Positions 4,331 to 62,729 are shown, counted from the first letter of the stretch. The stretch: 64,000 bases of DNA from an uncultured Methanosarcinales archaeon (GCA_964512765.1 CAZEKF010000001.1:66366-130365), one strand, 5' to 3'. Notes: generated from the sequence alone by a model not told the origin. Numbers and translations are program-made.

Positions 4331-4332
4331 AA

Positions 4333-5024: not shown

Positions 5025-5026
5025 AA

Positions 5027-5974: not shown

Positions 5975-5982
5975 TTCGAAAA

Positions 5983-7230: not shown

Positions 7231-7317
7231 CCGTGGTGAAAAACGACCCAAAAATAGTAAAACTTTTATAAAGTTCCTGTCTTCTATGATAGAAGTATAG
7301 ACAATTACAGATGAACA

Positions 7318-8661: not shown

Positions 8662-8664
8662 AGA

Positions 8665-13712: not shown

Positions 13713-13730
13713 TTACTATTATAAATCTTC

Positions 13731-25134: not shown

Positions 25135-25137
25135 TTT

Positions 25138-44996: not shown

Positions 44997-45091
44997 GATT
45001 AAATCACCTTTAACCTGAGATAAAACTTAAATGATAAATAAAGGTATCGGTGCATAAACTTAAATATAAAATGTTTTTTCCCTATTGAAGA

Positions 45092-46738
45092 ATGACGAAA
45101 AAGAAAAGATTAATGGATGATGCAGATCTTGATCAGTTTGTTAGAGACTGTATTCTTATATGGTATAATCGAACTGATGCACAGCCAATAACCGAAGAAC
45201 AGTCAAAAAAAATTTACAGAACAATTGGTGATATGGTTAACGCACACGAATTAGTCGCAGAGGTTTTTGAAGCTACGCAAGACATAATTCCTTTAATTGT
45301 TTATGATGAAGTACGCGTTTTAAGAAAAGAAATTGATCAGTATGATTCTCTTCTTTATGTTTTACATGGTAATTTTGATTATAGAGATGCACATCTAAGA
45401 CACGGAGATTCTTTGTTGGCTGTTTTAGCACAACACGTAGACTTGGCTACACCATACGAAACATGGAGACAACAACAAAACTTTTCTAAAGTTGATAATG
45501 TCACTGAACAACCTCAACAAGCACAAGCATTTGAAGTTGAACCAGGAGAAGAACATCACCACGTAGTACAACAATCTGTCCGAGATGAAATTCCGGTAAA
45601 TGCATCAGCAAGAGTTGAGGATATGCGTCTTGACGGTCATGCTTTACAAATACCAGGGACAGGAGTAACAGTTGCCACTCAGCTTGACCAACATCAAATT
45701 ATTGTTTCAGGAACAGCACCTAATAATTTTGTTATTCATCTACCAGGAGATCTTGGTGATAAATTACAAGACGGGTTACTTATAGTTGATACAATCGATA
45801 GGTTTTCACCTGAAATACGTCGTTTTGATTTTTTTTCAAGAGCTGAGCGAATTGCAGCTGGGCATGAAAAAGGGATAGCTACAAACTTATATCCGTCAGG
45901 ACAAGGAGCTAGTGCAACAATTACTTTTCAACAACCAGCAAACTATTTGTTAGTGCCTTTAGATGGAGATGGTGCATTAACTTGTGAACGAGGGAGATTC
46001 AAAGGATATATTGGGACATATAATTTGCGAAGATTTGAAAGAAATTTTAATATTTCTAATTTTCTTTTGGCAAACTTTAATTTTATTGTCAGTAAGTTAT
46101 CTGATCAGCCATTATTATTTGGACCTGTTCAAAAAGTGAATGTTAATGGTCAAGGATACGCAATAATTCAAGCATCTAAGGGAACTCAGACAGTTACCAT
46201 GCCTCCCCATGATGAACAAGATTTAGAATCGCCTGTTATTGCATACAAAAATGTTTTTTTCAAAGATAAAGGGTTGCCTTATAAAATTGGCATGGAAGTA
46301 ATTACTGCAGGAGGGTTAGCATCATTAGCTCTTATTTTTGGTGATAAAGCACCAGAAATAGGTAAAATGATTGGAGGATTTGCTGCAGGGTATTATGCTA
46401 CATCTGCAACGGTTGGCAAACGTACTTTTAAAAACACTTTAGTTAGTATTGTTACTGGTGTTGCTTGTGCAGCAACTACACAAATTAATTACGAACCAGT
46501 ACAAGAAGTTGTTCAAAATATTGTTGAACCTGTTTATGCGGGATTAGACGGATTATTTCTTGGGAGAATTCTATATGGAACAATATTTAATCCTATTAGG
46601 ATTAAAAACTGGGGAGAAAGAATATTTAGAATGTTATACTTGAGCAAAACCAATAATGCATTGACACAACCAGTAGCCTATACTAAAGAGAAAGTTGGTC
46701 ATGTTATAGAAGGAAGAATTGGTAGAGCTAGGGAATAA
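45092..46738 (+). CDS. Hypothetical protein with a C-terminal glycine-zipper membrane region (548 aa)
   Basis: About 400-aa soluble N-terminal region, then GxxxG-rich helices (VITAGGLASLALIFG, IGGFAAGYYATSA). Composition shift relative to the core genome. Confidence 0.3.
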   Translation: MTKKKRLMDDADLDQFVRDCILIWYNRTDAQPITEEQSKKIYRTIGDMVNAHELVAEVFEATQDIIPLIVYDEVRVLRKEIDQYDSLLYVLHGNFDYRDAHLRHGDSLLAVLAQHVDLATPYETWRQQQNFSKVDNVTEQPQQAQAFEVEPGEEHHHVVQQSVRDEIPVNASARVEDMRLDGHALQIPGTGVTVATQLDQHQIIVSGTAPNNFVIHLPGDLGDKLQDGLLIVDTIDRFSPEIRRFDFFSRAERIAAGHEKGIATNLYPSGQGASATITFQQPANYLLVPLDGDGALTCERGRFKGYIGTYNLRRFERNFNISNFLLANFNFIVSKLSDQPLLFGPVQKVNVNGQGYAIIQASKGTQTVTMPPHDEQDLESPVIAYKNVFFKDKGLPYKIGMEVITAGGLASLALIFGDKAPEIGKMIGGFAAGYYATSATVGKRTFKNTLVSIVTGVACAATTQINYEPVQEVVQNIVEPVYAGLDGLFLGRILYGTIFNPIRIKNWGERIFRMLYLSKTNNALTQPVAYTKEKVGHVIEGRIGRARE

Positions 46739-48110
46739 CCTCTTCGTAATAATCTGTTATTTTGAATGAATCAATAATTGTTGTGTTGTTTCCACTCACT
46801 TGATGAGCATTACCTATCAACGCGTTTTCATGCACGTCTATAGTTACAAAGTGATAAATACCGCATTTTGCATATTTTTGTAAAAAATTTATGCTTTGCT
46901 CATGATGACGTATTCCCCAACTACAGTCTTTTAATGGACCTCCTCCTCCGCCTGTTACAATAGTATGAATGAAGGTATTTGGAAAGATAAAAGTTTGTTC
47001 AGCACCGTTTTCGGGTTTAGTTTTATGCCCATCGTCAGGAACAGCATACCTTTCATATGAATGTAAATGACCTGAAAACACCATTGTTACATCATATTCT
47101 CTGAATAAATCTTCATAAAGATTACTTACTTTGGTAGTTTTACTCTCACCCATAGTAGCTGTATAAAACGGCATGTGCATGTATACAATAATGTTTTCTA
47201 TACCCTCCATTGATCGTGCTTGTTGAAGATGATTTTTTACCCAACCAACAGGTGTATTTCTCCAATATTCGTTTCCTTGTTCAAATGAAATAAAATATGT
47301 GTTTTTGTATCTAAAAGCATAGTTTGTTCCGTACTGAAGATCGCTTGGCGAACCAGATTCATGTGTGTTTGAAGGAGGGAACAACTTAAAATTATCTCCA
47401 AGTCCAGGGTTGCTTAGAAGAGAACTAAGAAATGACCTATATTGAAGAATTCCGTCTTGTGCTTGGTCATGGTTTCCGCTTGTTGGGAAGAAAGGTATAC
47501 CGTTTAGTTTATTTGTGAAACACTGGTTAAATCTACTGTAAGCACCGCCTGACCATCCCCAGTCCATTAAATCACCAGTATGAATTACTAAATTTGGGTT
47601 AGTCTGTGCTAACAAAGAGGGTAAACTTGATCTTTCAGCACCGCCGCATGAGTTTGTTGCATACTGTGTATCTCCAACAACGCCAAATCTAAACAAAAAT
47701 TCACCGTCTAATGATTCTGCGACTAATTTGTCCACAGGATTTCCTACCCACAACTCTAGTTTTTTTGAAGCTTCTGGTGTAGGTGTTGTCATTTGCGTAG
47801 ATGTCAATAAAATTTCTTGCGTTGGTGTCATAACATCTGTCGTTGGTGTATATACTTGAGTAGGATTTAATAGAACTTCTAAAGTAGGTGTTGTTGTAAT
47901 ATCAGATGAAACCACAGTGCCTAATGTGAAATCTGTTGAAAAAGCAATTGGGCTTGGAGTGACATAAACTTGTGCTTGGTTCTGTGATACAGATGTTGAA
48001 GAAGTTACTGTGCCATAGACCCAGCCAACAGTTACAGCACCGCCTAACAGTACAAGAGATCTTACTAAACCATTTTTCTTTTTCCTACGCCTACGTCTTC
48101 TTCTTGTCAT
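46728..48110 (-). CDS. Arg-tail signal-anchored surface protein with a calcineurin-like metallophosphatase domain; C-terminal ...EEVIP tag
   Basis: MTRRRRRRRKKK plus TM. T/P-rich stalk. Metallophosphatase motifs GDTQY, GDLMD, GNHD, MHMP, GHLHSYER. Ends DYYEEVIP. Confidence 0.7.
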   Translation of the reverse strand: MTRRRRRRRKKKNGLVRSLVLLGGAVTVGWVYGTVTSSTSVSQNQAQVYVTPSPIAFSTDFTLGTVVSSDITTTPTLEVLLNPTQVYTPTTDVMTPTQEILLTSTQMTTPTPEASKKLELWVGNPVDKLVAESLDGEFLFRFGVVGDTQYATNSCGGAERSSLPSLLAQTNPNLVIHTGDLMDWGWSGGAYSRFNQCFTNKLNGIPFFPTSGNHDQAQDGILQYRSFLSSLLSNPGLGDNFKLFPPSNTHESGSPSDLQYGTNYAFRYKNTYFISFEQGNEYWRNTPVGWVKNHLQQARSMEGIENIIVYMHMPFYTATMGESKTTKVSNLYEDLFREYDVTMVFSGHLHSYERYAVPDDGHKTKPENGAEQTFIFPNTFIHTIVTGGGGGPLKDCSWGIRHHEQSINFLQKYAKCGIYHFVTIDVHENALIGNAHQVSGNNTTIIDSFKITDYYEEVIP

Positions 48111-48116
48111 TTTTAT

Positions 48117-49469
48117 TTAAGGTATAGCTTCATCAGGATCATACTCTTCCACATTTGAAGCAACATGAACATCAGATTGTAACCTTGCAACCCAGATTTC
48201 GCTGTTTGATTTTTTCAAAGAATAACTGTGCTGCTGGTCTATCTTACCATATAGTAACCATAGTTCTTGGTTCATTCTATATATTTGATTTGCAGAATAA
48301 TGTTGGAAATTACCTTCTCCATTAAGAACCCACTTACCTGTTCTGTTCCAATTAATACCGTCACTGCTATACGTCCATTCTAAATGAACATTACCTTCAG
48401 CATGAACACGATCAACGCCTTCTCTAATGTTACGTAATTCTGGTTCATAAATCCAAAGAACACCTAAATATCCATTCTGAACTTGTGTAACTGCCATACC
48501 ATAGAAATGCGTGTCTTTTCCTTCTTTATCAATCTCACTTTGGTTTGGCACAAGCACTAGCTGTGGTTCAGACCAATTAATAAAATCATCAGATACAACT
48601 CTAGCAACAGTTCTTATTCTTACACCTTCAATATTTTCTTGTCTTTTAACATATCCAACATATTTATTTAACCTGAAATCATAGAAAAAGTTAGCAACAT
48701 CGCTCCAATTTGTATATGGGCCACCTATTTGATTAAAATCAATACCATTTGTAGATTCATATGCCATAAATCCGTTGTCTCGTTTATATACCATTAATTT
48801 CATGGTCTTTGTACCATCATAAACAACAGACGTCATGTTAGAATTTTCAAATAAAATCCGTTCGTTACTCCACTCATTACCATTACCACTTTCTACAACT
48901 CTAATGCTTGACCCAGAACCCGATGCTTTATCCCAATGAGTGAAATAAAGAAAATAGTTGTCACGATTTTCTCCTTTTGGTAAAATTCCACCATACACAT
49001 ACTCGATACCTTCAAACCTGTTTCCTTCTGTAAAAAGTATAGAATTATCTATAACTCTAACACTGTTAATCCAAGAAGCCAAATCAAACTCAAGATTACA
49101 TAAATATTCAGGAGGGCATAAAGATGCTTCTATTGTATTTTCAAGTGTAGGTGTTAAGGTTACAATTGGTGTTGAAGTTAACAACACTTTTGGTGAAGGA
49201 GTAAGTATAACCGGTTGAGTAGGATCAGACACAATAGTACCATCTGCAAAAGGTTCAGAAAAAGTAGGAATTGTCTGGTTGTTGTCAGAATGTTCTTTTG
49301 GATTATAAGGTAAGATAGCAGCTATTTGGTCAAATATTGGTTCGTTAAAATCAATCTGGCTTATTACATAACCTGTGTATAAAGAAGCTCCTCCTATTAA
49401 AGCAACTGTTCCAATAGTTTTAAGGAAATTTCCTTTTCTTTTCCTTCTTCTACGTCTTCGTCTTGCCAT
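48117..49469 (-). CDS. Arg-tail signal-anchored surface protein with a beta-propeller glycoside-hydrolase-like domain; C-terminal ...DEAIP tag
   Basis: MARRRRRRRKRK plus TM. T/P stalk. W/Y/G-rich repeated blocks typical of GH32/43/130-type propellers (the fold assignment is tentative). Ends EEYDPDEAIP. Confidence 0.4.
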   Translation of the reverse strand: MARRRRRRRKRKGNFLKTIGTVALIGGASLYTGYVISQIDFNEPIFDQIAAILPYNPKEHSDNNQTIPTFSEPFADGTIVSDPTQPVILTPSPKVLLTSTPIVTLTPTLENTIEASLCPPEYLCNLEFDLASWINSVRVIDNSILFTEGNRFEGIEYVYGGILPKGENRDNYFLYFTHWDKASGSGSSIRVVESGNGNEWSNERILFENSNMTSVVYDGTKTMKLMVYKRDNGFMAYESTNGIDFNQIGGPYTNWSDVANFFYDFRLNKYVGYVKRQENIEGVRIRTVARVVSDDFINWSEPQLVLVPNQSEIDKEGKDTHFYGMAVTQVQNGYLGVLWIYEPELRNIREGVDRVHAEGNVHLEWTYSSDGINWNRTGKWVLNGEGNFQHYSANQIYRMNQELWLLYGKIDQQHSYSLKKSNSEIWVARLQSDVHVASNVEEYDPDEAIP

Positions 49470-49475
49470 TTTTAT

Positions 49476-51134
49476 TTAAGGTATTATTTCTTCATAAAAT
49501 TCATTTCCTTCGAAAATTCTATCTCGAACAACATAATATGCTGCACTACACTCAACAGGTGAGTCTGTAATGCCTTCACCAACACAACCATATTCAGGTG
49601 TTTTAAATGGAGATTTTACAGCACCTGTTATAGAAGTAGAGAGCATAAAATCCTTAACAGCATTTGCAACAGCTTCATAACACCTAAAACTGTCAAAAGG
49701 GAACCCTTCCACAGCTTGGCAACTCATTAAATTGTTTGTTAACCAAGCAAGTTGGTCAAGACTTGTGTCATAATTAAGTGGTTCCTGAAAATTTAATACA
49801 TTTATCATATATCTAACATGCCACATATGACCTAACTCATGTGCAAAAACTTTTGTGAATATTTCTTGAGACACTGTATCTCTGTTTTTCATTATAATTT
49901 CATTATAGGAAACAACACCAGAGTCTGTTGTATTTTGAAAGCTTGTAACACCAGTGTCTGAACACGTCACAATTAACGGATCATTAAATAATACATAAGG
50001 TCCAACTCTTGTAACGAGTTCTTCTGCCCAAACAGGAATTTCTTGTCTACAGTTGTTAAAAGATACTAAACCAAATTCATATGTAGGGGCTTGTGCAACA
50101 ACTACAGTCGGAGTAGGTACAAGAGGTGTGTTAGTCAAAGTAGGGTTGAGAACACCAGTTGGCGTAGCTATCGCAACTTGACCACTACCTTGGTCAGGTT
50201 GAGAAATATCTACTTCAACAAACACACCTTTGTAATCAGGATATAAACTGCTAAGGTTTTCTAAACTAGTAGATTGTACACCACCTGCTGCAGTTGAATG
50301 AATAACAGTAACACCGTTATTAGTTGGGATCGCTATTCCAACATGCGAATATTCTCTTATGCCACCTTTATCATGGTTAAGTGTCCATAGATACATTTTA
50401 CCAATTTCCATATGATTACCAATATCATCCCATTTATCAGGGTCATAACCTTGGAACTCAGTAAATCCGTCTATTGGTTTAAATATCTGAGAATTTGGAT
50501 CAATAATGTATGCAATGTTAAGTGTCTGGTCCCAACCATATGCTTGCCTTAAAACTTCGTCATCTGCAGGTCGGTCTGTTCTTTGTTGAAATGCGTCGTC
50601 AAGTTTGATATTAACTCTACTAATTGCTCTGGCAGCTTGTAACTGATACCCTGCACAGTTGAATCCAATAACATTATCAATTGTTGGTGCACCACCTGTC
50701 CAATAAACAAACGAGCCATTATCATCAATAAAACCAAAGTTCTTGTAAGGCACGCCAATGTACTGACTTGCGTCATTTAAAGCCATTTGTGCAATTTCGT
50801 CAACACTTTTACTCGTCTGTGTAAAAAATAACGTTGGAGTTGGAGTTAACATTAAAGCATCAGGCGTAGGAGTTAATGCTACTGGTTGAGTAGGTCCAGG
50901 GATAAGTGTACCATTCATGAAACTTTCAGGAAAAATAGGAATTGCTTGATTATCATCAGATTGTTCTTTTGGGTTGTAAGGTAAGATAGCAGCTATTTGG
51001 TCGAATATTGGCTTGTCAAAATCTATCTGACTGATTAGATAACCACTGTATAAAGCTCCACCTATTAGAACCAAGTTTACACCAGTCCTAAGACAACCGC
51101 CTCCTCTCCTTCTTCTACGTCTTCGTCTTGCCAT
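49476..51134 (-). CDS. Arg-tail signal-anchored surface protein with NlpC/P60-like cysteine peptidase and HEXXH zinc-metallopeptidase domains; C-terminal ...EEIIP tag
   Basis: MARRRRRRRRGGG plus TM. NCAGY (Cys) and HVGIAIP...IHSTAAGG (His) of NlpC/P60. AHELGHMWH zincin motif. Ends NEFYEEIIP. Confidence 0.6.
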   Translation of the reverse strand: MARRRRRRRRGGGCLRTGVNLVLIGGALYSGYLISQIDFDKPIFDQIAAILPYNPKEQSDDNQAIPIFPESFMNGTLIPGPTQPVALTPTPDALMLTPTPTLFFTQTSKSVDEIAQMALNDASQYIGVPYKNFGFIDDNGSFVYWTGGAPTIDNVIGFNCAGYQLQAARAISRVNIKLDDAFQQRTDRPADDEVLRQAYGWDQTLNIAYIIDPNSQIFKPIDGFTEFQGYDPDKWDDIGNHMEIGKMYLWTLNHDKGGIREYSHVGIAIPTNNGVTVIHSTAAGGVQSTSLENLSSLYPDYKGVFVEVDISQPDQGSGQVAIATPTGVLNPTLTNTPLVPTPTVVVAQAPTYEFGLVSFNNCRQEIPVWAEELVTRVGPYVLFNDPLIVTCSDTGVTSFQNTTDSGVVSYNEIIMKNRDTVSQEIFTKVFAHELGHMWHVRYMINVLNFQEPLNYDTSLDQLAWLTNNLMSCQAVEGFPFDSFRCYEAVANAVKDFMLSTSITGAVKSPFKTPEYGCVGEGITDSPVECSAAYYVVRDRIFEGNEFYEEIIP

Positions 51135-51140
51135 TTTTAT

Positions 51141-52694
51141 TTAAGGTATTAATTCATCTGGTCCGTCATAATGAACTGTTGCAAAATTTACAACTGACCG
51201 ACCACTCCAAGTATATTCGTACAGCCTACCATTAAAATAAATCTGTTGCGATCCTCCAGCGTCCATGTTAATTGCAGAATGTGCACCAATGTTGTCCATT
51301 ATTTCTGCAGCATTGCACAAAGTCATTGGTTGAGTTATCATAACAAATAAGGTATTATCATTCACGCCAATCACTGTTCTTCCTCTTGAACCCCATTTAG
51401 GAGAATGACAATCTTGTTTAATGTCAGGATAAAAATCACCGCCGTAGTTGCTTCTATTAAACAAAGTATTGTTACCAGAAACAGCGTATAATATACCGTC
51501 GAAGTTACTGTTAATGTGCCTAATTGTTACTCTACCATTTTCATAAACTACTAATGAAGGCTCTCTAGGGTTTCCAGCATGGACATGATTACGATGTACA
51601 TACGGACCTTTAGGAACAGATGAACCAGAGTCCCATTGATCAGCATTAACAGTAAAAATTACATTATGGCTGTTAGCATATCCTTGCGCAGTATTTAACC
51701 CACCAGGTGCAGAAGATCCAACATTAATGTAAGGACTACACAAATCAAATTTAAACAAAGTATAATTGCCATTATTTTTAATTATTATAGGCTCATCCCT
51801 TGGTTTACAGTTATTTGGTCCTTGTGATTCTTCTGTTGGTCTAGGAGTATGTGTCAATGTAGGGACAGGAGTTGGTGTACTAATTAGATGTTTAATATCT
51901 ATATTACCTAAATCAGGTGAATAACTTTTAACTGCATCTTTTAGATGTTGGTAAGGATAACTGTTATTTGCAAAGCGCAACATTTCTTTTTCAGCTAGAT
52001 CGTAACTGTAGTTTTCGAACTCCACCCTATATATACCAACAATCATACCTGCTCTATGCGCACCATGCTGGCAATGAACATATACCGGTTGCATAGCAGG
52101 ATCTTTAATAATTGTCATAATCTCTAGAATATTTTTGTTAAAATCATGATGTGTAGGAGATTCTGCATTCATTGGATATTTATCAATGTAAATCATGCCT
52201 CTTTGTTCAACTAATGATCGTTCATTAGGCATTCCTTGAGACAAATCTATAACTGTTTTAAATCCTTGAGCTTGTAAATAATCAAAAGCAGCAGCAGAGT
52301 CTGGTTGAGCACCTGCAGCTAACACACCAGGATCAATCCATCTTAAATGAGTTACTGGTGAACCTTCAACTAAAGGAGGAATTTCTGCTTTAACAACAAT
52401 GTCAAGCGTAGTAGTTGGTTGAGGTGTAGGTGTATGGGTTGGCATCAATGTGGGCAGAGGAGTGTGAGTTAATGTTGCTAAAGTTTCTGGTGTTATGTAT
52501 GGGTCTGTTGGTGCGTACAGTACTGTTGCAGTAGTATCTAAGATTTGCTGAGCAGACATGTTATTAACATGAGCAGATGCATGGTCCCTTGTTTTAAAAT
52601 AAACAAATGACGCCGCTGTACCAAGAATAAATAATCCAAGAGGTATAACACAACTATTTCTACGATTCTTTCTTCTACGTCTCCTACGTGCCAT
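51141..52694 (-). CDS. Arg-tail signal-anchored surface protein with a CX5R (PTP/DSP-type) phosphatase domain and a phosphodiester-glycosidase (NAGPA-like) domain; C-terminal ...DELIP tag
   Basis: MARRRRRRKNRRN plus TM. VHCQHGAHRAG is an HCxxGxxR P-loop. C-terminal AINMDAGGSQQ resembles the NAGPA/DUF2233 motif. Ends YDGPDELIP. Confidence 0.6.
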   Translation of the reverse strand: MARRRRRRKNRRNSCVIPLGLFILGTAASFVYFKTRDHASAHVNNMSAQQILDTTATVLYAPTDPYITPETLATLTHTPLPTLMPTHTPTPQPTTTLDIVVKAEIPPLVEGSPVTHLRWIDPGVLAAGAQPDSAAAFDYLQAQGFKTVIDLSQGMPNERSLVEQRGMIYIDKYPMNAESPTHHDFNKNILEIMTIIKDPAMQPVYVHCQHGAHRAGMIVGIYRVEFENYSYDLAEKEMLRFANNSYPYQHLKDAVKSYSPDLGNIDIKHLISTPTPVPTLTHTPRPTEESQGPNNCKPRDEPIIIKNNGNYTLFKFDLCSPYINVGSSAPGGLNTAQGYANSHNVIFTVNADQWDSGSSVPKGPYVHRNHVHAGNPREPSLVVYENGRVTIRHINSNFDGILYAVSGNNTLFNRSNYGGDFYPDIKQDCHSPKWGSRGRTVIGVNDNTLFVMITQPMTLCNAAEIMDNIGAHSAINMDAGGSQQIYFNGRLYEYTWSGRSVVNFATVHYDGPDELIP

Positions 52695-52740
52695 GATGTT
52701 CTCATCGACCAGTAGTAAATAGTTATATTTAAAGATAGTG
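52650..52740 (-). repeat. Copy 1 of an approximately 90-bp duplicated segment covering the leaderless promoter (TATA-like TTTAAATATAACT) and the first approximately 14 codons of the Arg-tail gene
   Basis: A 45-mer CATGATGTTCTCATCGACCAGTAGTAAATAGTTATATTTAAAGAT at 52692..52736 is identical to 54313..54357. The flanks are near-identical. Confidence 0.7.
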
Positions 52741-52785
52741 GGTTTTCAATATGATTTTACTGTATAATTGAAGAAGAATTAGGTG

Positions 52786-54315
52786 CTATGGAATAGGTTC
52801 ATCATAATTATATTCATAAGCGGTTCTAAATGAGCTTGCAATATCTATACTGTTTCCAGAAATTAAAACTAATTTTCCACTATTTGACCCATTCATGGTT
52901 GGTATTGTTAAATTAACATTACCTTCTTCATTTGCTTGAATAACATCACCAGTAAAAACATTTGTTAATATTTCATAAGCTGGTAGTCCATTGAGCGTAT
53001 AATTTCTGGATTCTTGTGTTAAATTGACTAGGTAATACATTTGGGAGTCATTAGGCCCTTGCCTGACCATGTATGCAATACCATTTTGGTTTCCATATTC
53101 TGGATTTGATCCAGTTAACCAAGGCATTAACGCATGAAGTTCATGACCAATCTCACTAATAGTATTCCATAAAGATTCGTATAAACATGGTTTATTATAT
53201 TCACATTCTGGCCAATCCCATAAGGCAATACCATTAGCACCGCCAACAATTGCTTCGTCAATTCGTTGCCTAAGCATACCTCTTGATTGATTATAATTAA
53301 AATGTGCTGGTAAAACAACAAATGTAGAGTTTGAAATACCAGATTCTTTTTTACTTGATAACTGTCTTACTGAATTAAATGTTTTTCCAGTTCCTGAATA
53401 GTTATGATAAAAGTCAGCACCCCATATATCACCTAAGAGAGTATTAAATAATTGATCAGAAGAATAACCAAAATTAGGTTGATCCATTCTGTGATGTAAT
53501 ATTAATGTGTCGTGAACTGCATTGTTATGAATTTTTTTGTGGAGCCTTGTAACTTTTTCAGATATTAAGTTCCAATTTTTAATTAAATTAGGTTCATCTT
53601 TTCCATAGAACCATAACATTGAAGGATGATTATCTACAAAATTAATGAATTCAATTAGTTCTTCAGGTTTTTCGTCATATGTGTCAAATCGAGGAATCAT
53701 CATCATGCCAAATTCTCTGGCATGTTCAAAAATTTTGGGACCATATGGCTGCATAACAATTGTGTTAATACATGCATTAGACACTCTTTGCCACACATTC
53801 ATATTATGATTTATTTCAGCATCAGGCCCAAAGTCAGGATTATCAAATGCACCAGGAGGCCTAGGTAAATAATATATTCCAAATGGAAAAAAACCTGTTC
53901 CTTGTTGAGGGAGACCGTCACCAGTAATAATTATTGAACCTTGATTTTCATAATTTATTTGATTAGCACCATTTGCATACCAGGAAGGAACACATATAGT
54001 ATTATGTTGAACTAAATCTTGGAGATTTTGGACTTGAAGGGTGGGCGTTAGGGTAGGTAATGGTGTTGGTGTTGAAGTAGGTAATGGAGTATGAGTTAAA
54101 GTTGGTAATGTTTCAGAAGTCACAATTGTTTGAGTAGGTACAAAAAAAGCTTGTTGTGCAGGAGTCGCAACACTATTTTGTTGAACAGATGCTGCAATAT
54201 TTGGTATTACTTCTTCAAACATAAAATATGACACAGTAGTACCTAAAATAAATAATCCAAGAGGCACAACACAACTATTTCTACGTTTACTTCTTCTACG
54301 TCTCCTACGTGCCAT
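52786..54315 (-). CDS. Arg-tail signal-anchored surface protein with a TIM-barrel glycoside-hydrolase-like domain (tentative); C-terminal ...DEPIP tag
   Basis: MARRRRRRSKRRN plus TM. T/P stalk. WFYGKDEPN resembles the GH clan-A NEP acid/base strand. Ends YNYDEPIP. Confidence 0.35.
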   Translation of the reverse strand: MARRRRRRSKRRNSCVVPLGLFILGTTVSYFMFEEVIPNIAASVQQNSVATPAQQAFFVPTQTIVTSETLPTLTHTPLPTSTPTPLPTLTPTLQVQNLQDLVQHNTICVPSWYANGANQINYENQGSIIITGDGLPQQGTGFFPFGIYYLPRPPGAFDNPDFGPDAEINHNMNVWQRVSNACINTIVMQPYGPKIFEHAREFGMMMIPRFDTYDEKPEELIEFINFVDNHPSMLWFYGKDEPNLIKNWNLISEKVTRLHKKIHNNAVHDTLILHHRMDQPNFGYSSDQLFNTLLGDIWGADFYHNYSGTGKTFNSVRQLSSKKESGISNSTFVVLPAHFNYNQSRGMLRQRIDEAIVGGANGIALWDWPECEYNKPCLYESLWNTISEIGHELHALMPWLTGSNPEYGNQNGIAYMVRQGPNDSQMYYLVNLTQESRNYTLNGLPAYEILTNVFTGDVIQANEEGNVNLTIPTMNGSNSGKLVLISGNSIDIASSFRTAYEYNYDEPIP

Positions 54316-54362
54316 GATGTTCTCATCGACCAGTAGTAAATAGTTATATTTAAAGATGGTGT
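54272..54362 (-). repeat. Copy 2 of the approximately 90-bp duplicated promoter / 5'-CDS segment
   Basis: See copy 1. About 4 mismatches over about 90 bp. Confidence 0.7.
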
Positions 54363-54441
54363 TTTTTATGAAAATTAACTCTTAATTAGTATCAAATAAT
54401 TTTAAATATAACGTGTCATTACTTTTTAGTAAGAATTTATC

Positions 54442-55818: not shown

Positions 55819-55829
55819 TTTAAAGAATT

Positions 55830-57314
55830 TTATCCAGTAATTTGATTTTGTTTGTTATGAGTTTGATTATGATCATATAACTCTTTTGTACTTAGACTAG
55901 TTGTTGCTGCAACTTGTTTAATTTGCATATGGTCATTGTTTGCCCATGAAGAAATTCTATTTACAGCTGCATGTATCTTTTCCATATCTCCTTTTGCGTA
56001 CATTCTAACACAAGCCAAACGGTAGTTAGGGGGAAGTTTTCTTAATTTTTTTTTTTTAATTTGTTTTACAGGATCTCTAAACAAACCAGTTTTCGGCATC
56101 CAGTCACCGTAAGCATATTCAGGTATTACTTCAAATACCTCTTCAGGATCAAATTCATCAATTCCTTTGAACATTCTTTCAGTCCATGTTGCTTCATCAG
56201 GCGGCATCCATGGTGCTATGGAACAGTTTCGAAACCTAGCAATTGAGTTGGCTCTAGGCTGTGGAGTGTACGGATATCCATACAATGGATAGTAAATTTG
56301 TACTTCTAATTCAAGACCACCAGACTTTTCTTTTTCTATTTCACTAACGTACCCAACTACTAAGTCACCGTCTATTTCAACAGGATTTAACTGGGAAGAA
56401 ACACCAGGAATGGGATCCCATCTTGGGTTTAGAGCTCTTCCCAAGAATAAATGATCAGCATATCTATCTCTGTATCCTTCCATTTGTGAAAGATGTCTTG
56501 GTAAAGCAAAAAGACCACCTAGATCATAAACTCTTTTTGAAAATTCAACTTCTAATTCCATCTGCCCTGTATTTGTATCATGGTCAATATCAGCAAAAAC
56601 CAAAGTACCCAAACTTCTATCAAATATTTTAGGCAAAGCATTTAAAAATTGAACTCTAGCCATTTGTTCTGGATCAAGTTGTAATATTTTAATTGCATTC
56701 AAGATGTATTTAGTAACATAGGTCATGGGACCTTGCGAAAGAATGTTGACGTTTGATATGTATGGGCCGCTAGCAAGTGCATTAATAAGACGCTTACCAA
56801 AAGCATCTATAGTAATTTCAGTCTTTACATCTCGATCTTCCACAGGATATTGTCCAATTCTGTATCTGTTTTTTGATGCTTGAATTTCTTCGTAGGCAAA
56901 ATGATGTTTGAGATGGTGAACTGAAAAATCTGTAAACAGTGTTGCAAGCATATCTGGACTTCCTGCCATTTTAAAATCTAACTCTAACTTTGCATACGAT
57001 CTGTTTGGATAAAGTTCTAACCTTGTGTCACTACCTATGTATTCTTCTTGTTTAGGAACACGTTGAACTATACTTGCAAGCCCTTTTCTAATTTTCCTAT
57101 GTTTTGTTTTGTCTAAACTAAAAACTGGTTGCTCAGATTGCTGTGGCGGAGGAGTGTCCCATACCATGATTTGAGGTTCTGTTTGACCTAAATCTGTAGT
57201 TATTTCTCCTCCTTGGGTAGTTGTTATTCTAGAATCGTTGGATTTTGGACTAGTCATATCGCATGAGATTATTAAGTTAATATTTAAATATTTGCTTTTT
57301 CTAACTACTTTCAA
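55830..57314 (-). CDS. Hypothetical soluble protein (494 aa)
   Basis: Long ORF with no TM and no recognised motifs. Island-type composition. Confidence 0.3.
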   Translation of the reverse strand: MKVVRKSKYLNINLIISCDMTSPKSNDSRITTTQGGEITTDLGQTEPQIMVWDTPPPQQSEQPVFSLDKTKHRKIRKGLASIVQRVPKQEEYIGSDTRLELYPNRSYAKLELDFKMAGSPDMLATLFTDFSVHHLKHHFAYEEIQASKNRYRIGQYPVEDRDVKTEITIDAFGKRLINALASGPYISNVNILSQGPMTYVTKYILNAIKILQLDPEQMARVQFLNALPKIFDRSLGTLVFADIDHDTNTGQMELEVEFSKRVYDLGGLFALPRHLSQMEGYRDRYADHLFLGRALNPRWDPIPGVSSQLNPVEIDGDLVVGYVSEIEKEKSGGLELEVQIYYPLYGYPYTPQPRANSIARFRNCSIAPWMPPDEATWTERMFKGIDEFDPEEVFEVIPEYAYGDWMPKTGLFRDPVKQIKKKKLRKLPPNYRLACVRMYAKGDMEKIHAAVNRISSWANNDHMQIKQVAATTSLSTKELYDHNQTHNKQNQITG

Positions 57315-57369
57315 GTGATAAAATTAGTATTATTTATATATAACTTGTAATTACTCATCGATAATAAAA

Positions 57370-58398
57370 ATGCCTAGACGTAGAAGACGAAAGAAAGGAA
57401 TAGTGTCACCTCTGTTAATAGTTCCTGTTGTACTTTCTGCGACTAGTTGTTATTTAGTTTATTCAGTTCTTAAGTCTGATGATGGTGCTCTGGCACAAAA
57501 CAATGTTGTAATGATAACCACAACCTCAGAATACACTGCTACTCCTGCATACACATTAACTGCTGTTCCACCTGAATTAACACCAGAGGCAACAGTTGTT
57601 TTACAAGATTCTCATGGAGAAGGTTTCCCTGCAATACCTGCTGAGTTATTTAGTGGGATTCCTTCTAACCCAGGGGGAGGAGCTTTAGACGGTAGTTTGT
57701 TGCCAACATCTACACAAATGCCAAGAATGGGCTCTGAAGATCAACAGCCAAGAGAAGAACCGAATAATCCACAACCTGATCTTGGGAACTGTGCTATTAC
57801 TTACCCGTTTCAAGGAACACTAGGAGTTGATTTTTCAAGAACCTCGGGACCCCATACTTATGGAGCAGCAATAAATGGGGTTTCTCAGAATGCAGAAGAT
57901 TATGGAACTGCTGCAAATGTTGATCCAGTAATAGCTGTAATCTCAGGCAAAGTACTTTACTCATCACATGCACAATTATTGATTGATGGTCCTTGTTACT
58001 GGGCTTATTATTATCATGTTGACCAAGACCTGAGATACGGTCAACAAGTTGAAATTGGTCAAGCTATTGGTAGAGAAGCTTGTAATGTTGATAGTACTTC
58101 AGCAGGTTGTAGTGGTCCTCACGTTCACCTTAATATTTACGTTAAAGCTCAAGGACGAAGTGTGCCATTATCAGCTCTTAATGTCACATCTTGGCCAAAA
58201 GGTAATTCATATAATCCCTTCCAGGAGATTAGCGTAGCTTCTGCTATAGATTTTTTAGTTGCAAAAGAAACTTTGCAGGGCTATGAAGCAACACCACATG
58301 CTTTTGTATCTAAACAATTAGCAAGCGGTATTTATGTGCCTTCTTCAAAGAAAAAAAATGTTTTAGATGAAATAGTATGGGACCAGCCAATTTTGTAA
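57370..58398 (+). CDS. Arg-tail signal-anchored M23-family (LytM/lysostaphin-like) metallopeptidase
   Basis: MPRRRRRKKG plus TM. M23 motifs YYHVDQD (HxxxD) and GPHVHLNIY (HxH). Ends DQPIL. Confidence 0.65.
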   Translation: MPRRRRRKKGIVSPLLIVPVVLSATSCYLVYSVLKSDDGALAQNNVVMITTTSEYTATPAYTLTAVPPELTPEATVVLQDSHGEGFPAIPAELFSGIPSNPGGGALDGSLLPTSTQMPRMGSEDQQPREEPNNPQPDLGNCAITYPFQGTLGVDFSRTSGPHTYGAAINGVSQNAEDYGTAANVDPVIAVISGKVLYSSHAQLLIDGPCYWAYYYHVDQDLRYGQQVEIGQAIGREACNVDSTSAGCSGPHVHLNIYVKAQGRSVPLSALNVTSWPKGNSYNPFQEISVASAIDFLVAKETLQGYEATPHAFVSKQLASGIYVPSSKKKNVLDEIVWDQPIL

Positions 58399-60632
58399 AT
58401 GGAATAGCACTTGTAACAACAGCTGCTAGGTTGTTGGTACCTGCTGCAGGAGAAGTAATAGCATCTGATACTGTAGAAAGCCCGCAACAATCTGTTTCTA
58501 TTTGCCAGGCAATTAATGATCCAGGCAGTATTGGTGGTGATCTAGGCAATTTAGTTAATGCACTGGCATCTGCAGCTAGCCAAGCGCCAAGACATGGTAT
58601 TGGAATGAATGGTGGTGTGGAAAAAATAACAGCAGACGTGTTTGGCTGCGGTGAAATGGAGTTAACTGGCAAGTTTTTATCAACACTACCTGCGGCAGTT
58701 GCATTGTACTATGAACAATCTGACATTTCTTCAATGATTTCCAATGCAAGAAGTTACCCAGGTGGTGACCCTAGCAATGAAATAAGATCTGCTGTAGTTG
58801 TTGCGTTGTCAATGACTGAAAAAGGTAGAAAGATATTATCTGATCATGGAATTAATGGAAACATTAACGATGGAGCACAATTATTAATGGCAGTAAACAG
58901 GTTTGATGGTAAAGGACACGACATTATACCTTTACAAGACGCGTATTATTTAAGAACAGCTCTTCAAAATGGTAGAATTGTTGATGCTACTGCTTATAAC
59001 GAGAAAGCAATGTGGTATTATCAACAGGTAATGTCCAGTCCAATTTTAAGAGCTACCATGACAAGGATATCGATTAGAGAATGGACTCACAGACATGGAG
59101 CACAAAGTTACTGGGTGCAAATGGGTGGACGAATTAATTATTATCCAGACCATCCATCAAAAATATTTAACAGTGGAAAATGGTCAAGTTCTGCCTATGG
59201 AAAATACCAGTGGTTGACAAAGACATGGAATGATTTTTCTAAAAAGTTTCTTAATGCTCCAGGAATGGATCCTGTTTCACAAGAGTTAGGCGCTCCTGTT
59301 TTAATGAGAGAAAAAAGAAGTTGTTTTGATTTAGTTAGAGCAGGAGATAGAAATAGTCTAACAAGTGCTTTATCAGAATTAGGCTGTGAATGGGCAGGTG
59401 TACCGAATAGCTTAGCCAGAAGTGGGTGTATTTCTGGACAAAATCCAGCTGAGTCTGGTCAAGCATTTATAGACGCTGTATTTAGTACACATCTTCAAGA
59501 AGCAGAAAATATGCAAGACCAAGCATTTAAAACATTGTCAAGTGCAGGCCATCTTGGACCTTATTTGATAGTGCCTGCATTTAATTTTCCTGCTGGGTCA
59601 GTTGTTAAACTGCATACAAGTTCAGGTATAGTTGAAGTTCAAGGTCCAATTGCTATTCCAACATCTAATTTAGGCGACTGGGCGCAAAACAATAACTGGT
59701 CAGATACACGCGCGGGAGAATATACACCAGGTAATGGTTCTATTCCAATGAGTTATGTTAAGTGGATTAATGAACCAGACATGAGGCCAGTTGTTAATGT
59801 TCCTCAAGACATTGTTGCTGCACCAGAAGATTATGTGTTAAGTGGTGGTGCATCTTCTGCACCAGGCAGTGTTCCTGCAATGCAACTTGACGACACAGCT
59901 GAGACACTTGGTGTAATAGATCAAACTAGAGTGTCATCATATGGTAAGTTTGATGTGGAGTACGATGATCTTATGACTGCGTTTATAAAATCAGATACAG
60001 AAGTTACGCTTAACATTAGATCAATGAATATGGAAACAATAATTCACCAAGATAATATGTTTAAAATTGCACTAGGTAAAAACCTTGAAGTTGAAGGAGA
60101 CAGTTTGTCCTTAATAGGTTGGGGTAATCAGTTTAACCTTGAAGTTAATCAAAATTCTGCTGTTTTACAGTTACCTCAAAGTGAGGGTTATTTTGGTATA
60201 GGACTTATTTATGAAACAAATGGTATTTCTTATATCTTAAATACCAAAACAATTTTTGAAAGTCCTGCGTTAAGAGGAGAGTTTACATTTTTCGAATTAG
60301 ATTTACCTACAATAACTGATGATAACATGCAAAACCTTGACATTGCAGCTGTTGAACTTTCATGGAAAATGTATCAAGAAACTTTTGGTATTGTTTATAA
60401 TCCAGAAGAAATTGTAGAAAGAAAAGCTGAATGGGAAAGATATTCAAGAGATACTAATCATCCAGCTAATTTCTTTTATGTAGAAGCTGTTGGTATGCTT
60501 GCAAACACACCTATTTTTGGATATAATGATTCAGGTGAAATAATTGCTCTTGAACATGTTACACAGAACATGTTATTGCCTGTTCAAACATATGAATCTA
60601 ATATTGATTATTATCAAGAAGTTATACCTTGA
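58377..60632 (+). CDS. Large hypothetical secreted/surface protein (751 aa) with a C-terminal ...QEVIP tag
   Basis: Overlaps the M23 gene by 22 nt. No Arg tail. Ends DYYQEVIP like the minus-strand family. Domains not recognised; a muralytic partner role is speculative. Confidence 0.35.
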   Translation: MGPANFVNGIALVTTAARLLVPAAGEVIASDTVESPQQSVSICQAINDPGSIGGDLGNLVNALASAASQAPRHGIGMNGGVEKITADVFGCGEMELTGKFLSTLPAAVALYYEQSDISSMISNARSYPGGDPSNEIRSAVVVALSMTEKGRKILSDHGINGNINDGAQLLMAVNRFDGKGHDIIPLQDAYYLRTALQNGRIVDATAYNEKAMWYYQQVMSSPILRATMTRISIREWTHRHGAQSYWVQMGGRINYYPDHPSKIFNSGKWSSSAYGKYQWLTKTWNDFSKKFLNAPGMDPVSQELGAPVLMREKRSCFDLVRAGDRNSLTSALSELGCEWAGVPNSLARSGCISGQNPAESGQAFIDAVFSTHLQEAENMQDQAFKTLSSAGHLGPYLIVPAFNFPAGSVVKLHTSSGIVEVQGPIAIPTSNLGDWAQNNNWSDTRAGEYTPGNGSIPMSYVKWINEPDMRPVVNVPQDIVAAPEDYVLSGGASSAPGSVPAMQLDDTAETLGVIDQTRVSSYGKFDVEYDDLMTAFIKSDTEVTLNIRSMNMETIIHQDNMFKIALGKNLEVEGDSLSLIGWGNQFNLEVNQNSAVLQLPQSEGYFGIGLIYETNGISYILNTKTIFESPALRGEFTFFELDLPTITDDNMQNLDIAAVELSWKMYQETFGIVYNPEEIVERKAEWERYSRDTNHPANFFYVEAVGMLANTPIFGYNDSGEIIALEHVTQNMLLPVQTYESNIDYYQEVIP

Positions 60633-62620
60633 GCTAACACAGAAAGATTGTCATACATTCTCTCTTTTACTTTGTGTTCATTAACACCATACAGTTCACA
60701 AAGCGGTTTTATTTTACCATACGGAATAAGTTTAACTAATCCGCATAAATCACTTGGTTTAAAGTCTAAGAAAGGTGCTAATTTTTCCAGAGTAGTTTTT
60801 AATCCTGTTCTACGAATGAGTTTTTGGACAATTGGGTGGTCATGATGACCATTGCTCATTCCTCTCATTACATCATAGACTTCTTTTGTTCTCTCTGCCA
60901 AGGGATTTTCACTTGGACTATGTTCAGGAAGTTCAGCTGAAAATTCGTCAAGTGTTTTGTAAATAGTTAATCTAATATAGTTAGTCATTATTTTTTTTCT
61001 TGCTTTTTCAATATGTTCTTCATCTATATTTAACAGCACAGATTCTTGTTCTTCTTGTGATAATTCTGTTAATGTTTCACTTACTTCAAATTCTGCAGCA
61101 GCTTCTCTCACTAAACCAACAGGAACATTTTTTAACAAAGTATATATTACTTCAGGATTGCCTCTAAATTTCGAATATTTAATCATGTCTGATCCTGAAA
61201 ATTGATAAAGTGGTAAAGACGTGTGAGCTGCATGATATTCTTTATACATGTCATCTAAACCATTTGTTTGGAGAGGACCTATTAATTGTTCAGCTAGAGC
61301 TGATCTAATCTCTGGCGGAACTGCAGTGAACATAAGATCATATTTATCTGAGTTTGTATCTAATGTTGTTCCTACTCTTCCTAATATCTCACAAAATCTT
61401 GTTAGTTCATGTTGAAGTATTTTTTTAAACTCAATGTCTGGAGGCATTTCACCAATTTTGTTTAAACTAGCATCCAAATACCATTGCCTAGCAAGTTTTG
61501 TTAGTTCTTCATAACTTAACTCAGGCATTAGTTTTGCTATTCTGGAATGTGTTCTTGCATATGTACTCGCTGTTCCTTCACTTACCATGTTTGGATCTTG
61601 GTTGAATAATAACCATGAAAATTGTATTTTAGTATCAGCAAACGGACCTTTTCTCGGATGCCTGGCTTCTTCTAAAAACAAATCATCTATACATGACGGA
61701 GGAGTATTTACCCACATAGAACTTGAATACTCTTTACCAAGATATTCTTGTGCAATAGCGTCGAATAGTGCAAGCATTGGCAAATCTGCTTTTATTCTTT
61801 CTAAAGCAACTTCTCCTATGTAACCAGTTTCTTCAATTAAATCAGCGTGTCTGTTAATCATACTAAGTGATTTTGCATATTCAACCAATGCAGGTTTTAA
61901 ATGTTCAGCCTGACCTTTAATTGATGCAATATCAATATGTTCCCAGATAGGTTTGTCAGATGCACCTGTTTCAAGAGTGTAAGAATTAACGTATTGACAT
62001 ATAATATTTTCTGTTACATCCAAAAGTCCTGTTATAAAACTATACATAGGATTTGAAGTTAAATGAATTTTTCTTAGTCTTCTTAGTAACTGATCCATAT
62101 CATTAGCTTCGTCTATTATAAAATCCAGATGTCCGAAAAAGTTACTTGGTGTAAGATTGCTTAAATTATCTTTTATGGTTCTATCTAAATTATGAATATA
62201 CATTTCACTGTCCAAAACACCGTTAAAAGATAAATTACTAAGAATAAGTTGTTCATATGTTTCATAGTTCAATAATCCTAGTCTAATTGCAAGAGAAATA
62301 GCATTAAAATTTATAGGAAAAATAGTTTTTTTAGATACACTGGCTGTGGATATAGGATCTAGTTTGCTTAGTGGAAAATGTGCTCTTGGAATGGATATGG
62401 TTTTTTCCTCATATTTAGGTATTAATTCTTCTTCAGTTAGCAAACCGCGCCATATTGTGTCTACTAAAACTAAATCAGGTTCTGGAACAAAAGGTATTTC
62501 TTCTTGAGGTTCAGGAAATAATGGTTTATGTCCATTTACCTGTTCTTGAGGTTTATAATCTCGAATATGTCTTGTACGAACTTGTGTTATTTCACGTACT
62601 CTAGTAGGTTTTTTCCCCAT
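60614..62620 (-). CDS. Hypothetical soluble protein (668 aa)
   Basis: Long ORF with no TM. Contains internal EEIP/EELIP peptides near the N-terminus. Function unknown. Confidence 0.3.
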   Translation of the reverse strand: MGKKPTRVREITQVRTRHIRDYKPQEQVNGHKPLFPEPQEEIPFVPEPDLVLVDTIWRGLLTEEELIPKYEEKTISIPRAHFPLSKLDPISTASVSKKTIFPINFNAISLAIRLGLLNYETYEQLILSNLSFNGVLDSEMYIHNLDRTIKDNLSNLTPSNFFGHLDFIIDEANDMDQLLRRLRKIHLTSNPMYSFITGLLDVTENIICQYVNSYTLETGASDKPIWEHIDIASIKGQAEHLKPALVEYAKSLSMINRHADLIEETGYIGEVALERIKADLPMLALFDAIAQEYLGKEYSSSMWVNTPPSCIDDLFLEEARHPRKGPFADTKIQFSWLLFNQDPNMVSEGTASTYARTHSRIAKLMPELSYEELTKLARQWYLDASLNKIGEMPPDIEFKKILQHELTRFCEILGRVGTTLDTNSDKYDLMFTAVPPEIRSALAEQLIGPLQTNGLDDMYKEYHAAHTSLPLYQFSGSDMIKYSKFRGNPEVIYTLLKNVPVGLVREAAAEFEVSETLTELSQEEQESVLLNIDEEHIEKARKKIMTNYIRLTIYKTLDEFSAELPEHSPSENPLAERTKEVYDVMRGMSNGHHDHPIVQKLIRRTGLKTTLEKLAPFLDFKPSDLCGLVKLIPYGKIKPLCELYGVNEHKVKERMYDNLSVLAQGITS

Positions 62621-62729
62621 TTTGCTACTAAAAAGTAATAAATATTATATAAATCTTTCCTTTTTGTTATTATTTGATAGTGGTTAAAAAAGTTAAATTT
62701 AAATATAAATTTGTTTTACAGAGGGTAAA

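Follow-up and report, generated by a model that had tools for sequence, protein, structure and literature searches.

Does an archaeon, an organism making no murein of its own, carry enzymes directed at the murein of bacteria? The question is raised by two overlapping open reading frames (ORFs) at 57370..60632 of a 64,000-nucleotide stretch of DNA deposited under an uncultured Methanosarcinales archaeon (GCA_964512765.1 CAZEKF010000001.1:66366-130365); this whole stretch is referred to as the window, and all positions are counted from its first letter. An earlier reading made from the sequence alone (the sequence-only reading) had proposed a cell-wall-lytic module in an archaeon, consisting of an arginine-tailed M23 peptidase and an overlapping 751-residue protein. 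In this study, we report that the module is borne out, and that it is strengthened by a GH104 domain with its catalytic glutamate in the 751-residue protein and by the archaeal nature of the contig. With a probability of roughly 0.6, we consider 57370..60632 to be a two-gene unit that displays murein-directed proteins on the outside of a Woesearchaeota-type DPANN cell. Both ORFs and their overlap were read from the window as had been claimed:

57370..58398 (+): gene 1, 342 residues, a predicted membrane-anchored M23/LytM-fold protein (ORF; Pfam PF01551)
58377..60632 (+): gene 2, 751 residues, with a central GH104-like domain and a DYYQEVIP end (ORF)
58377..58398 (+): overlap of 22 nucleotides, gene 2 lying in the -1 frame relative to gene 1

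The exact gene-1 protein was found to be encoded by 23 contigs from JGI, ENA and Logan assemblies, which represent different samples and assemblers, and the layout was unchanged at every listed place where these contigs reach beyond gene 1. The DNA identity between the window and the matching loci was 99.8-100%, and gene 2 in independent assemblies was either identical or a single variant, matching at 750/751 residues. Since the same layout occurs in independent contigs, the overlap is not an assembly error.

Gene 2 appears, from its sequence, to be the credible and well-supported lytic enzyme of the pair. Pfam gave no match in the 751-residue protein, and no Pfam model detects its GH104-like domain. 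A sequence search of the PDB returned lambda lysozyme (3D3D/1AM7, E 1.8e-5, residues 234-344), and phmmer, run exhaustively over 1.84 billion representatives, produced 461 matches at E<=1e-3, all of them within residues ~195-410; for the rest of gene 2 the same scan gave nothing other than a fragment of the protein itself. Alignment with 60 homologs showed E235, Y245, H259, P260, G275, Y277 and Q302 to be invariant. When the sequence of the lambda lysozyme R, verified beforehand, was added, its catalytic Glu19 fell on E235, which is invariant in 62 aligned sequences. AlphaFold2 modelling with 60 GH104-like homologs gave a predicted local distance difference test (pLDDT) score of 83-96 for residues ~200-390 only, the flanks being uninterpretable. 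The top two Foldseek matches of this model in the PDB were 3D3D (E 3.9e-7, template modelling score 0.74) and 1AM7 (template modelling score 0.75), followed by a cyanophage baseplate protein, while Foldseek against BFVD returned only meaningless matches (root-mean-square deviation 25-60 Å). Moreover, gene 2 matched the PHROG endolysin family phrog_90 (E 1.1e-10) and 'tail fiber/lysozyme' families, and tblastn identified P2/186-type endolysins and records annotated as lytic transglycosylase or GH104, a phage record among the latter. No relatives of gene 2 were found in IMG/VR or in the GTDB species genomes. Judged by sequence and modelled fold together, gene 2 reads as a GH104-type lytic transglycosylase domain set between orphan flanks of ~200 and ~360 residues, with the following parts:

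58989..59546 (+): GH104/lambda-lysozyme-like lytic transglycosylase domain (residues ~205-390), predicted from sequence, fold and catalytic Glu
59079-59081 (+): codon of the putative catalytic Glu, E235 (from the alignment; codon checked)
59547..60605 (+): C-terminal orphan region (residues 391-743), for which no relatives were detected and a beta-rich content is weakly predicted; pLDDT mostly <50
60606..60629 (+): C-terminal tag DYYQEVIP, its codons overlapping the 3' end of the convergent gene 60614..62620

The DYYQEVIP end, a tag with counterparts on neighbouring proteins described below, was read from the ORF as previously stated. The accompanying claim that gene 2 lacks an anchor of its own holds in part: the basic cluster is absent, although residues 10-28 form a moderately hydrophobic start (Kyte-Doolittle 1.61). 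Gene 2 shares its final 19 nucleotides (60614-60632), which cover part of the tag and the stop, with the 3' end of the convergent 668-residue gene 60614..62620.

Gene 1 combines an N-terminal anchor, a stalk and a recognisable M23 domain:

57370..57471 (+): basic cluster MPRRRRRKKG followed by a hydrophobic helix (residues ~9-34; Kyte-Doolittle 1.98), from the sequence
57472..57780 (+): Thr/Pro/Ala/Glu-rich low-complexity stalk (residues 35-137), from the sequence, without a family match
57781..58179 (+): M23/LytM domain (residues ~138-270), from alignments and profile scores
57886-57900 (+): motif-1 position, Q173NAED177, from alignments, with the codons read
58015-58017 (+): auxiliary His, H216, from the alignment to LasA
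58120-58128 (+): HxH, H251/H253, from alignments
58375..58395 (+): VWDQPIL, taken as a degenerate family tag, its likeness to ends such as YDEPIP (the 52786 gene) being judged by eye

The poly-arginine plus transmembrane start was found as described in the sequence-only reading, and is predicted to be an N-in/C-out signal anchor, the topology following from the positive-inside rule; its hydrophobic stretch of ~24 residues is typical of anchors. Membership of the M23 family was likewise upheld by the Pfam Peptidase_M23 model (PF01551), which scored 31.9 bits against a curated gathering cut-off of 28.7 (E 1.6e-7, residues 182-260). The PHROG endolysin phrog_3084 also matched (E 5.6e-5), and BLASTP against Pseudomonas LasA, using a sequence confirmed to be identical to PDB 3IT5, gave 40.4 bits with 32% identity over 96 residues. 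A custom profile of nine M23B domains scored 37.9 bits with high posterior probability across the motif-1 stretch; placement of gene 1 between M23A and M23B was close, at 40.4 versus 41-42 bits.

The M23 family is defined by the motifs H(x)nD and HxH, with a further His ~30 residues before HxH (PMC9662197). The HxH of gene 1 is intact in all alignments, as had been claimed, with G-P-H251-V-H253 aligned to the GPHLH of Pgp3, LasA, phage lysins and the profile. The proposal that motif 1 is the 'HxxxD' of YYHVDQD did not stand: H216-V-D-Q-D220 is a literal match to the pattern, but H216 of YYHVDQ aligns by BLASTP with LasA H81 in YYHMDQ, ~35 residues before HxH, and is thus homologous to the auxiliary His.

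Several observations weigh against the reading of 57370..60632 as a unit displaying murein-directed proteins. The loci come from a near-clonal population, and homolog searches found no relatives for ~75% of gene 2 or for the stalk and tail of gene 1, so that conservation is unusable as a test of function. No peptidoglycan-binding domain (PG_binding_1, LysM, SH3 or similar; Pfam E<=0.1) was detected in either protein, while PG_binding_1 is present in some GH104-like homologs. A classical signal peptide was not seen on gene 2, which leaves its export unexplained. Single-sequence AlphaFold2 modelling of the M23 part of gene 1 reached a mean pLDDT of 31.8, which is no usable model, and word-index searches for homologs, run with each full protein and with the isolated M23 domain, recovered at most the query. 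Furthermore, three alignments (phmmer to Campylobacter jejuni Pgp3 6JMX, BLASTP to the Gordonia phage lysin A, and the custom M23B profile) place Q173-N-A-E-D177 at the motif-1 position, with the Asp kept and the His replaced by Gln. The Pfam match begins at profile position 11, downstream of motif 1, and an alternative alignment to an uncultured phage M23B domain puts T150-L-G-V-D154 there, after a 22-residue gap, likewise with no His. In B. subtilis SpoIIQ, a Ser occupies the position of the motif-1 His and does away with zinc binding, and the protein is seemingly catalytically inactive (PMC4982068).

Gln was present at the motif-1 position on all 23 contigs, and the first zinc ligand of gene 1 is most probably Gln and not His. 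An M23A-type H(x)nD pairing of H162 with D177 was tried as a candidate for motif 1 and rejected, since the M23A profile aligns only from residue 171 and the three M23B-based alignments give Q173. Peptidase activity of gene 1 is doubtful because the zinc-ligand His of motif 1 has been replaced, and conservation of the M23 catalytic residues, which the sequence-only reading had itself named as decisive, fails at this position; the M23 half is compromised as an enzyme. This raises a possible alternative, to which we give somewhat less than an even chance, in which gene 1 is a non-catalytic, degenerate LytM protein that serves as an anchored murein-binding or partner subunit, positioning or activating the GH104 protein, and gene 2 is the sole cutter. 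Apart from the three independent alignments, this alternative draws on the anchor being on gene 1 and none on gene 2, on the probable coupling of the genes, and on precedent: the C. difficile SpoIIQ variant H120S shows no Zn2+ binding, so that loss of this one His abolishes it (PMC4982068), and degenerate M23 folds serve as protein hubs or activators, as in EnvC/NlpD, Csd2 and B. subtilis SpoIIQ (PMC9662197). The domain nevertheless retains D177, H216, H251 and H253, and H162, the only upstream His, lies 15 residues before D177 and matches the ligand His of the M23A enzymes LasA, pseudoalterin and beta-lytic protease in a four-sequence MAFFT alignment. Gln is in principle able to ligate zinc. 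In addition, the Q173 codon CAG (57886-57888) is one third-position transversion from His, which would give the canonical HNAED; the loss may therefore be recent, and a 'designed regulator' would be an over-reading. Between a weakened or atypical cross-bridge endopeptidase and a non-catalytic murein- or partner-binding subunit, the sequence of the gene-1 M23 domain suggests about even odds.

The junction of the two ORFs could also mean that they are not two genes. The sequence-only reading had offered a frameshift-split single gene beside co-translation, and the elements that bear on this choice are the following:

57333..57342 (+): TATA-box-like element TTTATATATA, ~30 nucleotides 5' of the gene-1 ATG, read from the sequence
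58351..58358 (+): run of eight A residues; from 58353 it includes A_AAA_AAT, a slippery heptamer when read in the frame of gene 1
58366-58370 (+): Shine-Dalgarno-like GATGA, a weak match 6 nucleotides 5' of the gene-2 ATG

A gene split by a mutational or programmed -1 frameshift would yield a single chain of Arg-anchor, M23, GH104 and tag, which would match those neighbouring family members that have anchor and tag together. The -1 frame and 22-nucleotide overlap of gene 2, the division of the basic anchor (gene 1) from the tag (gene 2), the A8 run with its heptamer 19 nucleotides 5' of the gene-2 ATG, and the existence of GH104-M23 fusions in phages would all fit such a product. However, the gene-2 frame has a TGA at 58368-58370, two codons before the ATG and 3' of the A8 run, so a -1 slip at that run only truncates gene 1 and yields no fusion. 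As gene 1 stops at 58396-58398, a fusing shift must fall in 58371-58395, and these 25 nucleotides contain no X_XXY_YYZ heptamer of the kind used in programmed -1 frameshifting and no homopolymer. Moreover, gene 1 has a tag-like end of its own (WDQPIL), GATGA stands at a Shine-Dalgarno-like spacing before the gene-2 ATG, and the layout is identical on the 23 contigs. We therefore regard a split single gene as very unlikely.

The two ORFs are probably separate genes, gene 2 being translated from the ATG that lies within the gene-1 end, either through coupling or through re-initiation. GATGA may act as the Shine-Dalgarno sequence of gene 2; the CDC48 and glmS-like genes of the window are preceded by GGTGA at a comparable distance. 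TTTATATATA is a candidate promoter, from which a short-leader or leaderless transcript of the two-gene unit would arise. On the other side of this element lies the gene at 55830-57314 (-), divergent from gene 1, which encodes 475 residues in most contigs and is split into 57 + 400/409 residues in two strain variants (L002, L005) in which the M23 protein is still identical; this suggests that part of the population can do without the divergent gene or is losing it.

Analysis of the surrounding genes confirmed that the host is an archaeon, and narrowed it to a Woesearchaeota-type DPANN lineage, a small archaeon of the symbiont type. The window encodes SecY, an STT3/AglB oligosaccharyltransferase, aIF5B, Trm1 and a CDC48-type ATPase, and an archaeal ribosomal-protein superoperon (L32e, L19e, S4e) lies directly upstream of it on the contig. 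Downstream of the hydrolase cluster to which the pair belongs are rpS2, a protein with a Lon_C domain (Lon protease C-terminal domain; LonB) and a RecA/Rad51-family protein. The CDC48 protein has 72-78% identity to proteins of metagenome-assembled genomes (MAGs) labelled Woesearchaeota, Nanoarchaeota or Nanoarchaeia, and its best 80 genome matches are nearly all DPANN.

Horizontal acquisition, proposed in the sequence-only reading, is plausible, given that both domains have their nearest relatives in bacteria or phages; from where these relatives occur, a bacterial or phage origin of the two domains would be the natural reading, and it would be old. Any such acquisition was not recent. The GC content is 0.36 in the cluster (45000-64000) and 0.31 elsewhere (1-45000), an excess found only at codon positions 1 and 2, and the GC-rich cluster proteins are rich in Ala, Gly, Pro and Thr; raised cluster GC was accordingly rejected as a sign of transfer. 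The GC content of third codon positions (GC3) is 0.20 in the cluster versus 0.24 in core genes and the rest of the window (Mann-Whitney p 0.005). For genes 1 and 2 it is 0.195 and 0.209, with a host core-gene mean of 0.238. Since this is as low as in the core genes, there is no compositional trace of recent transfer.

The same figures bear on whether the cluster is a lysis or entry cassette of a provirus or mobile element, or a recent bacterial or phage island. Such an origin would account for the closest GH104 relatives, the two best-scoring of which are located on phage-like contigs and which include phage tail and endolysin proteins, for the bulk GC of the cluster above that of its flanks, and for the 80 related MAG loci that have no island homologs beside CDC48. 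It is nonetheless highly improbable: the cluster and its immediate surroundings gave no integrase, capsid, terminase, tRNA or phage structural gene, there was no match in IMG/VR, housekeeping genes stand on either flank, and the codon-position pattern of the GC excess together with GC3 points to native codon bias.

With two separate genes in an archaeal chromosome, we return to the two-gene unit for murein-directed display. Gene 1 would be held in the membrane by its Arg-rich N-terminus and transmembrane segment, with the M23/LytM domain projected on the ~100-residue Thr/Pro-rich stalk, and the gene-2 GH104 domain, E235 being intact, would cut the strand of N-acetylmuramic acid and N-acetylglucosamine (MurNAc-GlcNAc) in bacterial peptidoglycan as a lytic transglycosylase. 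The cluster as a whole would form a surface-displayed arsenal against bacterial envelopes, serving predation, host access or scavenging. The target could instead be something other than bacterial murein, namely the pseudomurein of a methanogen host, S-layer glycans of the cell itself, or self-remodelling. Partnerships with other archaea are often suggested for Woesearchaeota, the catalytic domains of both proteins are very divergent and no peptidoglycan-binding domain was detected, all of which would suit such a target. On the other hand, all GH104 and M23 relatives of known function act on murein, and pseudomurein, with its beta-1,3 linkage and talosaminuronic acid, is no lysozyme substrate. 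Archaeal peptidoglycan hydrolase homologs are also nearly absent from the classes that make pseudomurein, and have been argued to target bacteria (PMC12352652). A non-murein target is accordingly unlikely, and the interaction with bacteria put forward in the sequence-only reading agrees with the published reading of such genes in DPANN archaea (PMC12352652, PMC9723730).

The pair is part of a cluster that extends from ~45 kb to beyond the end of the window, ~19 kb with eight hydrolase-like proteins that have the Arg-anchor and/or a C-terminal ..[DE]E[VI]IP end in common. Five of these are encoded in tandem at 46728..54315 (-) with 6-nucleotide spacing and one gap of 91 nucleotides. Each of the five proteins consists of M-[AT]-Arg6-8, a transmembrane segment, a Pro/Thr-rich linker, a different enzyme-like domain and a ..[DE]E[VIALP]IP end. 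The domains between these constant ends are Metallophos (calcineurin-like phosphoesterase), a possible beta-propeller glycosidase, an HExxH protein, PTP with NAGPA phosphodiester glycosidase, and one of unknown type. The last member of the cluster runs past the window:

62730-64000, continuing past the window end (whole in contig L095, 8086-9891): eighth member, 601 residues, MASRAKRRRK plus a transmembrane segment and a Pro/Thr linker, ending in ..YNFDEVIP, without a Pfam match

The tag ends of the five tandem genes and the 62730 gene are DYYEEVIP, DPDEAIP, FYEEIIP, GPDELIP, YDEPIP and NFDEVIP. Similarity between the paralogs is limited to the N-terminal ~75-115 residues, and three gene junctions form a 57-nucleotide repeat, 81-93% identical, which comprises the tag end, TAA, ATAAAA and ATG-GCA-(Arg codons)7. 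EEVIP also occurs internally, right after the N-terminal transmembrane segment of the 52786..54315 protein (54199-54213, residues 34-38; ..SYFMFEEVIPNIAAS..).

The shared ends did not correspond to the export or sorting signals with which they were compared. Archaeosortase/exosortase-type signals (PGF-CTERM, PEF-CTERM) were not seen: the proteins end at ..EVIP with no hydrophobic segment after it, and the transmembrane segment and basic cluster of the tag family are at the N-terminus and not at the C-terminus. The Tat consensus S/T-R-R-x-F-L-K was also not found, the N-terminus MPRRRRRKKGIVSPLL.. having a run of 5-8 Arg without x-F-L-K; any look for tatA/tatC was confined to the window. A literature search for the anchor or tag motif found nothing relevant, and PDB sequence searches with three neighbouring tagged proteins gave nothing usable. 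A degenerate DNA pattern for [DE]YY[EQ]E[VI]IP-stop, searched against JGI metagenomes, returned three chance matches and missed its own contig, which makes it uninformative on the spread of the tag.

A doubtful proposal, to which we assign only a small share of probability, is that the shared ends constitute a signal for targeting or assembly that has not been described in archaea before, composed of Met-x-Arg(5-8), a transmembrane segment and a Pro/Thr stalk at one end and a free ..[YF]x[DEQ]E[VIALP]IP-COOH at the other. The tag would then be a short docking peptide with a dockerin/cohesin-like logic, which would gather the different envelope-degrading enzymes, the GH104 protein without an anchor among them, into a single complex on the surface, facing a bacterial partner. 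The untagged, repeat-containing neighbours at 54442, 55830, 60614 and 45092 would be candidate scaffold or handling factors, and the 57-nucleotide junction repeat would be the signature of a cassette system in which catalytic domains are exchanged while the ends stay constant. Among these neighbours, the 54442-55818 (+) gene encodes 458 residues with a very basic N-terminus (MVRLNIKKKTRKRSKKRSSRKTLRRRP) and two internal repeats of ~215 residues (300 nucleotides, 79% identity); the protein has no family match, no transmembrane helix and no tag. That it might be a partner of the acidic tags is pure speculation. The anchor/tag architecture is the unexplained feature of the locus, and the one that could prove new.

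Elsewhere in the window, a large glycosylation neighbourhood occupies 1472-15445 and 21369-26481, with AglB/STT3, several GT2 genes, an epimerase/dehydratase, a DUF6541 membrane protein, a glmS-like enzyme, a hexapeptide-repeat nucleotidyltransferase and a phosphoglucosamine-type mutase; this neighbourhood is a probable source of the sugars with which surface proteins, for example the Pro/Thr-stalked enzymes, are N-glycosylated. At 27378-28304 (+), a 308-residue protein has the unusual combination of an ArsR-type helix-turn-helix (HTH_20/HTH_5) and an S_layer_C domain. Additionally, a free-standing ORF of 337 residues at 40392-41405 (-) has a LAGLIDADG_3 homing-endonuclease-like domain (Pfam E 9e-6, 26.3 bits, cut-off 22.5).

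Peptidoglycan hydrolases are among the few signs readable from sequence that an archaeon deals directly with bacteria. The locus is a further, very divergent case of the published idea that DPANN archaea attack or scavenge bacteria and establishes no new principle; what it adds, from a Woesearchaeota-like DPANN archaeon, is a predicted lytic transglycosylase of the GH104 type together with a protein of M23 fold. Domain surveys would largely miss the pair, because the GH104 domain escapes Pfam and no wall-binding domain is present in either protein; existing lists of archaeal enzymes acting against bacteria therefore probably fall short of the true number. As the two ectodomains are of a size suited to expression, murein cutting by a DPANN archaeon can be tested directly at this locus. 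Furthermore, the common Arg-anchor and EEVIP end on eight hydrolase-like proteins could show how cells organise surface enzymes.

For gene 2, the closest known systems are the lambda lysozyme R (1AM7, 3D3D), its best PDB match in sequence and fold, and P2/186-type endolysins; lambda R shares E235 (its E19) and the DHP and G-x-YQ motifs, whereas the gene-2 domain of ~185 residues is embedded in a 751-residue archaeal protein with a lineage-specific tag, at ~25-40% identity. For gene 1, the M23A enzymes LasA (3IT5), pseudoalterin (6IK4) and beta-lytic protease (8AF1) and the M23B enzymes lysostaphin, LytM and Pgp3 (6JMX) have the HxH and the auxiliary His in common with it, the latter residue (H216) corresponding to LytM H260 and LasA H81. 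The likeness to LasA is close ('YYHMDQ...GQQV...GPHLH' against 'YYHVDQ...GQQV...GPHVH'), but gene 1 differs from these enzymes in its QNAED motif 1 and in having an Arg-transmembrane anchor and stalk instead of a signal peptide or pro-region. The degenerate LytM proteins B. subtilis SpoIIQ, E. coli EnvC/NlpD and H. pylori Csd2 have an incomplete zinc site as gene 1 does, SpoIIQ being without exactly the motif-1 His (PMC4982068), and they partner or activate other wall enzymes (PMC9662197); gene 1, in contrast, keeps the other catalytic residues, is archaeal and has no division or sporulation role.

The pairing of the two domains also has a parallel. M23 was the commonest extra domain in long GH104-like homologs (5/56), and the cyanophage MaMV-DH01 encodes, beside a baseplate gene, a 397-residue 'lysozyme/metalloendopeptidase' (UWV19746.1) with a GH104-like N-terminal and a canonical M23 C-terminal domain. 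The archaeal pair differs from it in consisting of two genes with M23 first, one product being anchored, and in having no phage genes nearby; it is also far larger and more divergent.

Among archaea, Strock et al. 2025 detected homologs of peptidoglycan hydrolases in ~5% of genomes, most commonly in Nanoarchaeota, reported M23 domains in four Nanoarchaeia genomes, and showed that two haloarchaeal enzymes (Halogranum salarium Woldo/Danwoldo) kill a bacterium (PMC12352652). Vigneron et al. 2022 described lytic murein transglycosylases of family GH23 from Woesearchaeota MAGs and suggested that these archaea prey on bacteria (PMC9723730). These are, like the present pair, bacterial-type murein hydrolases in archaea that make no murein; they are prominent in Nanoarchaeota and have been read as weapons or tools used against bacteria. 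The published surveys used Pfam/CAZy catalytic domains, and one also required a wall-binding domain, a modular definition of the Strock type that leaves the present pair outside. The pair is set apart from the published archaeal hydrolases by being GH104-like and not GH23 or GH25, by its lack of a wall-binding domain and its defective M23 motif 1, and by the Arg-anchor/EEVIP architecture, which is undescribed in those studies.

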